Shown piece by piece: positions 1 to 214 of a stretch of 214 nucleotides of DNA. The notes beneath the pieces are model-generated. The model had not been told where the DNA came from. It did no database searches and saw only the letters and a program-made list of their open reading frames with translations. Position 1 is the first letter of the stretch; the number at the start of each line of letters is the position of its first letter. The stretch lies in NCBI RefSeq assembly GCF_003334405.1, contig NZ_QOWM01000077.1. One strand, written 5' to 3'. Source of the stretch: Escherichia coli. GTDB taxonomy: Bacteria; Pseudomonadota; Gammaproteobacteria; Enterobacterales; Enterobacteriaceae. The position numbers and the translations under genes are program-made.

Positions 1-46
1 TCATCCTCATGAGCTGCAGATGCAAAAAAGCCTGCTCGTTGAGCAG
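1..46. repeat. Direct repeat copy 1 (exact 46/46 match to 169-214; period 168 bp); abuts the window start, so true repeat length is at least 46 bp
   Basis: Base-by-base comparison of 1-46 with 169-214 gives zero mismatches. Seen directly in sequence. Confidence 0.95.
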
Positions 47-214
47 GCTTTTCGAATTTGGTCGGTGATAGAGGATTACTCGCCACTTCGTGGCTCGCCC
101 TGCGGGCCGTTGCTGGCGCAACGTTCTCTCGCTTCGCTCGAGTCGAACCTCCCTGCCCCCGGAGGTTCTCATCCTCATGAGCTGCAGATGCAAAAAAGCC
201 TGCTCGTTGAGCAG
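2..214 (+). CDS. Stop-free reading frame spanning the whole window (register of ATG at 20-22 and 188-190); an open-frame observation, not a supported gene call
   Basis: All 71 codons in this register (2-4 through 212-214) are sense codons. Plus-strand stops occur only in the other two frames (TGA at 10, 40, 178, 208; TGA at 66 and TAG at 69). One unit from ATG 20 translates to MQKSLLVEQAFRIWSVIEDYSPLRGSPCGPLLAQRSLASLESNLPAPGGSHPHELQ (56 aa). Against coding: third-position GC is 33/56 (59%), the same as bulk GC; the frame runs through the terminator hairpin; no resemblance to any protein family I recognise. Confidence 0.12.
24..52. terminator. Intrinsic (rho-independent) terminator-like hairpin, bidirectional: A6, 8-bp GC-rich stem, 3-nt loop, T4
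   Basis: aaaaaa(24-29) gcctgctc(30-37) gtt(38-40) gagcaggc(41-48) tttt(49-52). The stem arms are perfect reverse complements, and with the flanking A/T the inverted repeat is 12 bp perfect (26-37 with 41-52). Minus-strand reading gives hairpin then U6 (complement of 24-29), the stronger orientation. Plus-strand reading gives hairpin then UUUUCGAAUUU, a weaker interrupted U-tract. Confidence 0.6.
82..123. other. Cluster of three adjacent short perfect stem-loops (potential structured RNA segment; strand undetermined)
   Basis: gccac-ttc-gtggc (82-94; 5-bp stem, 3-nt loop); gccc-tgc-gggc (97-107; 4-bp stem, 3-nt loop); cgttgc-tggc-gcaacg (108-123; 6-bp stem, 4-nt loop). All arms are perfect reverse complements. 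Function is inferred only. Confidence 0.4.
146..167. promoter_or_regulatory. 7-bp stem-loop pairing CCTCC (anti-SD-like) with GGAGG (Shine-Dalgarno-like), upstream of ATG at 177
   Basis: aacctcc(146-152) ctgccccc(153-160) ggaggtt(161-167), perfect 7-bp stem with 8-nt loop. GGAGG at 161-165 lies 11 nt upstream of ATG 177-179 (the copy of ATG 9-11). The structure is seen directly; a regulatory role is speculative. Confidence 0.3.
169..214. repeat. Direct repeat copy 2 (exact match to 1-46); abuts the window end
   Basis: Identical to 1-46 at offset 168. The window therefore holds 1.27 copies of a 168-bp unit. Confidence 0.95.
192..214. terminator. Second copy of the terminator-like hairpin, truncated by the window end (A6, left arm, loop, 6 nt of right arm)
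   Basis: aaaaaa(192-197) gcctgctc(198-205) gtt(206-208) gagcag(209-214), identical to 24-46. Lies inside the terminal repeat. Confidence 0.5.

Follow-up and report, generated by a model that had tools for sequence, protein, structure and literature searches.

A 214-nt Escherichia coli contig with perfect terminal redundancy is very probably the proK-linked RtT repeat as delimited by a short-read assembly graph

The window considered here, the whole 214-nt stretch of DNA that was analysed, is very probably ordinary Escherichia coli chromosome, carrying the proK member of the RtT or tRNA-linked repeat (TLR) family and obtained by way of a short-read assembly graph. The RtT element of proK is already known, and the family to which it belongs has been on record since 1978. 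The first 46 nt of the window (1-46) recur with 100% identity as its last 46 nt (169-214) at a start-to-start spacing of 168 nt, such that the window holds 1.27 units (214/168). The chance expectation for exact 46-mer pairs within 214 nt is approximately 3e-24. This comparison bore out the terminal identity and the 168-nt period on which the original prediction had been built. Tandem Repeats Finder reported no repeat when run on the window because fewer than two copies are present.

By exact string search the window was found to be colinear with, and 100% identical to, positions 1501-1714 of locus L001 of E. coli K-12 MG1655 (NZ_CP032667.1). The rendering of this match by BLAST as “2 pieces over 245 bp” reflects the joining of repeat pieces by that program. 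Read along the minus strand of the window, the gene order is eptB, proK (tRNA-Pro, anticodon CGG), “RtT sRNA”, a REP-type element and dppA. Related sequence is present in all of the complete E. coli genomes (5426 of 5426). In 2716 of them a single place holds 80% or more of the window, so that approximately half of the genomes possess one complete unit or more. An exact 40-nt spacer pattern was also seen in five metagenome contigs of 5-111 kb.

At the chromosomal locus a 108-nt repeat is present in two exact copies (L001 1470-1577 and 1638-1745), the period being 168 and the whole block measuring 276 bp or 1.64 units. Between the copies lies a spacer of 60 nt (L001 1578-1637, corresponding to window 78-137), and no other part of the 1.64-unit K-12 locus is single-copy. 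The proposal that the copies in the window are ended by its edges and not by divergence proved correct. Divergence right outside positions 1-214 had been set beforehand as the refuting observation; taken literally this is not what was found, as the chromosomal repeat extends for a further 31 nt on each side, and beyond those 31 nt lies single-copy chromosomal sequence. On the tRNA side the repeat boundary falls inside the proK T-loop, 19 nt before the 3' end of proK, and upstream of this point there is complete divergence between the body of the tRNA and the TLR core. On the far side a REP-like element, which has a match to Rfam naRNA4, lies 4 nt from the repeat boundary. In starting within the T-loop of the tRNA, the boundaries of the 108-bp repeat resemble the att sites of tRNA-targeting integrases.

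On either side of the 60-nt unique spacer the window extends for exactly 77 nt. Compacted de Bruijn graphs, with k-mers as nodes and (k+1)-mers as edges, were simulated for the K-12 locus and for a 2.64-unit locus. At k = 77 the repeat edge measured 108 nt and the loop edge 214 nt, the latter being base-for-base the window. Loop edges of 102, 126, 170 and 258 nt were produced at k = 21, 33, 55 and 99 respectively, so that an edge identical to the window was seen with k = 77 only, and at k = 127 the K-12 repeat was resolved. The window would then be a loop edge in which the 60-nt unique core is preceded by the final 77 nt of the repeat and followed by its initial 77 nt, and its terminal redundancy is 46 nt long because two 77-mers are taken out of a 108-nt repeat (2x77-108 = 46). 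For reads of 150 nt, SPAdes by default uses k values up to 77, with 77-mers as nodes by the convention of that assembler, and a contig of 214 bp exceeds the usual 200-bp cut-off. From this exact geometry we infer, on quantitative grounds, that the terminal redundancy was produced by the assembly graph from a short tandem duplication that is itself real. The earlier suggestion of an assembler artefact is thereby upheld in one respect, since the ends of the copies at the window edges are those of a 77-mer graph loop edge, and fails in another, the sequence being real and its joins correct. The features of the window and of its chromosomal locus are collected in the table.

Table. Features of the 214-nt window and of the corresponding K-12 MG1655 locus (L001). 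Coordinates are those of the window unless marked L001.
Feature	Coordinates	Strand	Basis or remark
Distal copy of the proK intrinsic terminator	24-52	-	Inverted repeat with 12-nt arms, 100% complementary
Trailer AATTCG, 6 nt, between CCA and terminator	53-58	-	Same as the trailer of proK; within the 108-nt exact repeat
Complete RtT/TLR RNA element	59-192	-	Full-length match to Rfam RF00391 and RefSeq annotation in place
Copy of the tRNA-Pro(CGG) 3' end, 19 nt, AATCCTCTATCACCGACCA	59-77	-	19/19 identical to the last 19 nt of proK
TLR core, 65 nt, short hairpins	78-142	-	Homologous to the tyrT TLRs; compensatory changes in hairpins
Sense copy of the 5' half of the tRNA-Pro T-arm, GGAGGTTCGA	143-152	-	10/10 match to the tRNA
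5' module antisense to the tRNA T-arm, TGAGGATGAGAACCTCC	161-177	-	14/17 against the reverse complement of the proK T-arm
Proximal terminator copy, that of proK itself, cut by the window edge	192-214	-	Identical to 24-46; 6 nt after proK in the genome
Last 77 nt of the distal 108-nt repeat copy	1-77		Node shared with the repeat edge
First 77 nt of the proximal 108-nt repeat copy	138-214		Overlaps the other 77-mer by 46 nt
“RtT sRNA” ncRNA	L001 1559-1692	-	RefSeq annotation
proK tRNA-Pro(CGG)	L001 1727-1803	-	Same strand as RtT, 35 nt upstream

The minus strand of the window matched the Rfam RtT model (RF00391) over positions 1-130 of 130 with a score of 101.3 bits (gathering score 45, E 6e-22). 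The tRNA copy AATCCTCTATCACCGACCA is made up of the end of the T-loop, the 3' strands of the T-stem and of the acceptor stem, the discriminator base and CCA. ARAGORN found no tRNA in the window because the tRNA copy there consists of these last 19 nt only. The T-arm of the tRNA is represented in both orientations. In the predicted fold the sense copy GGAGGTTCGA is the 3' strand of the first TLR hairpin and pairs, as an inverted repeat, with positions 161-168. The antisense module TGAGGATGAGAACCTCC, whose degree of match to the T-arm was equalled in 2 of 20000 shuffles, is predicted to supply the 5' strands both of the closing helix and of hairpin 1. Folding of the single sequence gave a multibranched structure (-52.6 kcal/mol, z -2.2) that agrees with the Rfam consensus and in which the 5' module is predicted to close the fold by pairing with the tRNA-derived 3' strand.

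The RtT element is flanked by two identical terminators. In K-12 the second of these is succeeded by the beginning of another unit, after which comes the REP element. The distal terminator has an 8-bp G+C stem, extendable by A-U pairs, that is followed by a run of six U, and its hairpin folds with -18.2 kcal/mol (z -4.9). A pattern-based terminator scan gave no match at the proK terminator because the A/U extension of the stem uses part of the U run. With regard to coding potential, 168 nt corresponds to 56 codons and three of the six frames are open through the unit, one of them resembling the arginine-rich ‘tpr’ frame of tyrT. A coding reading was rejected on the grounds that the region is a structured RNA in which compensatory changes occur, and that a G+C content of approximately 60% makes open frames expected.

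The first TLR to be seen was the repeat of 178 bp x 3.14 that follows tyrT (Egan and Landy, 1978), and 22 TLRs at ten K-12 loci were later catalogued by Rudd (1999). TLRs have been defined as elements whose last 18-19 nt are identical to those with which the upstream tRNA or rRNA ends (Stenum et al., 2021, PMC8144298). At proK the element lies on the same strand after the tRNA, ends in the identical 3' sequence, scores well above the Rfam gathering value, has a compensated structure and is repeated head to tail with a period of 168. In a survey with a 21-base core pattern, covering one genome per species, 65 loci were found, mostly in Enterobacteriaceae, the genera including Escherichia, Citrobacter, Klebsiella, Salmonella, Kluyvera, Kosakonia, Franconibacter and Trabulsiella. 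These loci and five from E. coli yielded 93 TLR copies with a 3' end (nhmmer and ARAGORN). Where the upstream tRNA is present in the locus, the copies follow tRNA-Pro(CGG), tRNA-Pro(UGG) or tRNA-Tyr(GUA), the single exception being a Marinobacter locus with tRNA-Val. [quoted passage not shown] The proK-type arrays of other species (n=28) have 1-3 copies at a spacing of 161-169 bp.

Evidence that the fold is conserved came from an alignment of 48 distinct TLRs from tRNA-Pro(CGG), tRNA-Pro(UGG) and tRNA-Tyr loci. The RNAalifold consensus of these has 32 pairs, 11 of which show compensatory changes on both sides. Paired cells amounted to 97.9%, compared with 36-46% when the partners were slid by 1-3 columns, and the observed covariation score was reached by 0 of 500 shuffles. 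The closing helix and the first hairpin (helices 1 and 2) switch jointly with the identity of the host tRNA, and the last hairpin shows repeated changes inside the Tyr group. This pattern argues for selection acting on the fold of the TLR RNA, with a signal that comes partly from two or three lineages (Tyr versus Pro).

The number of units at proK differs among strains. LD39-1 (locus L002) has 0.64 units and no complete RtT element; K-12 MG1655 (L001) has 1.64 units and one complete element; UTAK-8 (L003) and 675SK2 (L004) both have 2.64 units and two complete elements, the units being 98% alike in the former and 100% perfect in the latter (444 bp, Tandem Repeats Finder score 888). In O157:H7 strains and in the K-12 derivative EPI300 the match spans 533-535 bp, against 701 bp, and carries no RtT annotation; both the span and the missing annotation are as would be expected of a locus with 0.64 unit. 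The proK locus is thus a short polymorphic tandem duplication and not a long array. At the DNA level, the number of units could be altered by unequal recombination, or by slippage during replication, with the long exact repeats as partners. Either process would account for the alleles of 0.64, 1.64 and 2.64 units and would be the most economical cause of the variation.

The period of 168 nt and the exact terminal redundancy are formally compatible with a real closed circle of 168 nt or 168 bp (a viroid-like RNA, a mini-replicon or an excised DNA unit) linearised with a 46-nt overlap. Recombination of the 108-nt direct repeats would free a 168-bp circle, strains do gain and lose units, and a mobilome preprint described exonuclease-resistant coverage that was raised at the tyrT TLR region under stress, although this was not attributed to circles. 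Against such a molecule stands the presence of the same sequence on the chromosome, with unique flanks, in thousands of complete genomes, where the repeat has the body of proK on one side and the REP element on the other. A double-stranded circle of 168 bp would also be without replication functions. Furthermore, the overlap and both ends of the window are exactly predicted by a 77-mer graph built from linear DNA; that graph accounts for both window ends and for the length of the overlap, whereas a circle accounts for neither. In a permissive Rfam scan of both strands no ribozyme reached threshold, the best match being a partial HDV-like one of 11.9 bits against 44 (E 6.9), and when a rod-like fold was sought in both polarities a series of local hairpins was seen instead. 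Plasmid and phage collections contained no genuine occurrence, the matches being megabase ‘plasmid’ records, Salmonella genome contigs and short pieces; the megabase records that cover most of the window are mislabelled chromosomes. Viroid-like and other small circular RNA replicons thus share with the window just the length of the unit and the terminal redundancy, in a formal sense, and the proK sequence differs from them in being chromosomal DNA with linear flanks and in having no ribozyme, rod fold or independent occurrence. The 168-nt circular molecule put forward in the original prediction has therefore been set aside, for want of a ribozyme and of a plasmid or phage home in a sequence colinear with a chromosomal locus, and a circle of this kind is exceedingly improbable. 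It is likewise very unlikely that non-replicating 168-bp circles are excised by recombination between the 108-bp direct repeats and that the contig reflects these and not just the graph loop.

A perfect tandem array had also been suggested, and this is right insofar as the tandem duplication in the chromosome is genuine; the loci are short (0.64, 1.64 and 2.64 units), and no long array was seen. A long, perfect array of the satellite type, with many 168-bp units of which the window would be a sample, draws support from the period of 168, the 100% identity and the 2.64 perfect units of one complete genome, but the complete E. coli genomes examined have 0.64-2.64 units between proK and the REP element and the range in the 28 proK-type arrays of other species is as low, which makes this origin very improbable. 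Suppressor-tRNA plasmids commonly carry cassettes with the promoter and terminator of proK, and an engineered construct with such a cassette in tandem would suit the double occurrence of the proK terminator and the PstI, XhoI, BspHI and BstBI sites in the window sequence. The whole 214 nt, restriction sites included, are however native K-12 chromosome at 100% identity, the RtT core, which vectors lack, is part of the window, and the plasmid records that cover most of it are the megabase-sized mislabelled chromosomes referred to above. A construct is hence scarcely credible as the source of the window.

For the chromosomal proK TLR a route to a discrete RNA can be proposed. RNA polymerase would read through the first proK terminator, which by analogy with the rrn TLRs would be the sole condition for transcription of the element, and transcription would end at the second, identical terminator. 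Since the tRNA 3' end, the trailer and the terminator are duplicated exactly, the steps of pre-tRNA-Pro maturation should act on the read-through transcript. The RNase E and exonuclease pathway that matures tRNA-Pro would trim this transcript at its tRNA-like 3' end and the product would be a structured RNA of approximately 135 nt. Read-through and processing of the proK TLR transcript are thus suggested by what is known of the rrn and tyrT TLRs. Transcription and release as a discrete RNA have been shown for members of both the tyrT and the rrn TLRs (for rrn, Stenum et al., 2021). The same study presented the dual-terminator read-through model and mapped RNase E ends for RrB: the 5' end of this RNA is an RNase E site 3 nt after the 5S rRNA and its 3' end lies 3 nt past the repeated 18-mer, which the authors propose recruits RNase E (Stenum et al., 2021). 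With regard to function, the sole claim for a TLR of a tRNA operon, an effect of tyrT rtT on the stringent response, was later withdrawn (see Stenum et al., 2021). That the antisense module, with its 14/17 match to the T-arm, pairs in trans with tRNA-Pro(CGG) or its precursor is an unlikely reading.

The nearest known systems are the TLRs of tyrT/tyrV (rtT, rttR; 178 bp x 3.14; RF00391) (Egan and Landy, 1978; Bosl and Kersten, 1991). [quoted passage not shown] In our analysis the tyrT repeat was reproduced as 178 bp x 3.1 units with four RtT matches of 133-138 bits, compared with 101 bits at proK. The proK repeat differs in its host tRNA, which is Pro(CGG) and not Tyr, in its period of 168 instead of 178, and in the Pro-specific sequence of its 3' end, its T-arm-derived strands and its antisense module. 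Each proK unit also has a full intrinsic terminator, and K-12 has just one complete unit.

Two further groups of RNA bear comparison with the proK element. The TLR sRNAs rrA, rrB and rrF, at the ends of rrnA, rrnB and rrnD, lie between two terminators, as does the proK element, and repeat at their 3' end 18 nt of the upstream stable RNA; read-through and RNase E have been proposed for their production (Stenum et al., 2021). They differ from it in that the upstream gene is that of 5S rRNA and in that they bind Hfq and CsrA, whereas the 19 TLRs of tRNA operons had CsrA-binder scores below 0.01 and were thus non-binders in that study (Stenum et al., 2021). 3'ETS-leuZ is a functional RNA that is released by RNase E from a tRNA primary transcript and acts as a sponge for RyhB and RybB (Lalaouna et al., 2015, in Stenum et al., 2021). 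Its sequence is unrelated to the proK TLR, it has neither a repeat nor a copy of a tRNA 3' end, and it lies before the operon terminator whereas the proK TLR lies beyond a terminator.

These findings carry a caution, in that short exact tandem duplications, in genomes that are well known, give tiny short-read contigs with perfect terminal redundancy that mimic circles. In any screen for circular replicons of very small size, repeat-loop edges should be removed first; their length is that of the spacer plus 2k, and their overlap is 2k less the length of the repeat. Neither the covariation with the identity of the tRNA, nor the layout with two terminators, nor the unit-number polymorphism at proK amounts to a new kind of system. 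For work on the function of the TLRs of tRNA operons, this covariation, the layout of the terminators and the 0.64/1.64/2.64-unit polymorphism may be of help.

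The number of 168-bp units differs between K-12 derivatives. The laboratory strain E. coli EPI300 (NZ_CP189566.1) is 100% identical to the MG1655 proK locus (L001) with a span of 533 bp as against 701 bp, and so carries one unit fewer. This suggests that laboratory lineages can lose a unit, or else that EPI300 differs in parentage over this region. At its distal end the MG1655 array is followed by a REP/BIME-type element, which in the genome occupies roughly the stretch 35-115 nt left of window position 1. The gap between this element and the 108-nt repeat's distal end is 4 nt, and the last, truncated TLR unit therefore stops almost exactly at the REP. 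The same is true of the truncated last unit of strain 675SK2.

Features of the proK locus and a TLR-like element elsewhere
Feature	Location	Strand	Basis
TLR 5' module, antisense to T-arm	window 161-177	-	14/17 identity to reverse complement of own tRNA's T-arm
REP/BIME-type element	L001 (MG1655 proK locus) 1386-1465	+	Rfam naRNA4 (RF02564), 69 bits vs threshold 59.5
TLR-like element, Marinobacter halodurans	L052 166-280	-	48.9 bits; 3' of tRNA-Val(GAC)

The 168-bp unit corresponds to 56 codons, and three of the six frames are free of stops over its full length (window 1-168, both strands; L001 1320-1852), such that a circular reading of the unit would give 'endless ORFs'. One minus-strand frame (…RLERSERTLRQQRPAGRATK…) is similar to the tpr ORF of the tyrT repeat (MRSFDQGSTRAPARERCRRQRPEGRSAQR), an arginine-rich, 'protamine-like' frame of 29 aa that is annotated within that repeat.

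In RefSeq the proK-linked copies too (L001 1559-1692, and those of UTAK-8 and 675SK2) bear the ncRNA note 'rtT sRNA, processed from tyrT transcript'. On these copies the wording is a transferred family label and says nothing of the proK locus. Matches to the window in the plasmid collection (H56-H63) are mostly to records of 0.8-4.9 Mb, and at that size these 'plasmids' look like mislabelled chromosomes. A 24.8 kb Klebsiella oxytoca plasmid (NZ_CP069933.1 6513-6620) holds 108 bp that are 100% identical to the repeat; this stretch comprises the tRNA 3' end, the terminator and the start of the TLR.

The Marinobacter element has 19 nt in common with the 3' end of its tRNA-Val(GAC). Core matches in Marinobacterium and in Ectothiorhodospiraceae MAGs (L034, L035, L036) were partial only, and two further pattern matches, in a Gammaproteobacteria MAG (L024) and in a MAG labelled Verrucomicrobia (L032), had neither a TLR profile match nor a tRNA. 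Several proK-type TLRs of other species match the adjacent tRNA-Pro(CGG) exactly over only 9 nt (L044 328-461, L026, L039, L043, L058, L021); these copies have ...CTCTGGCACCGACCA where the tRNA has ...CTCTATCACCGACCA. The same form recurs across different genera. It may go back to a different tRNA-Pro allele or to an earlier state, and not to random decay.

With its antisense 5' module, the proK TLR holds both an antisense T-arm and a sense T-arm, the latter split by the core. The tyrT TLR shows the same antisense match to tRNA-Tyr. Alternative folds of the TLR, or pairing of the TLR with the tRNA in trans, are conceivable.
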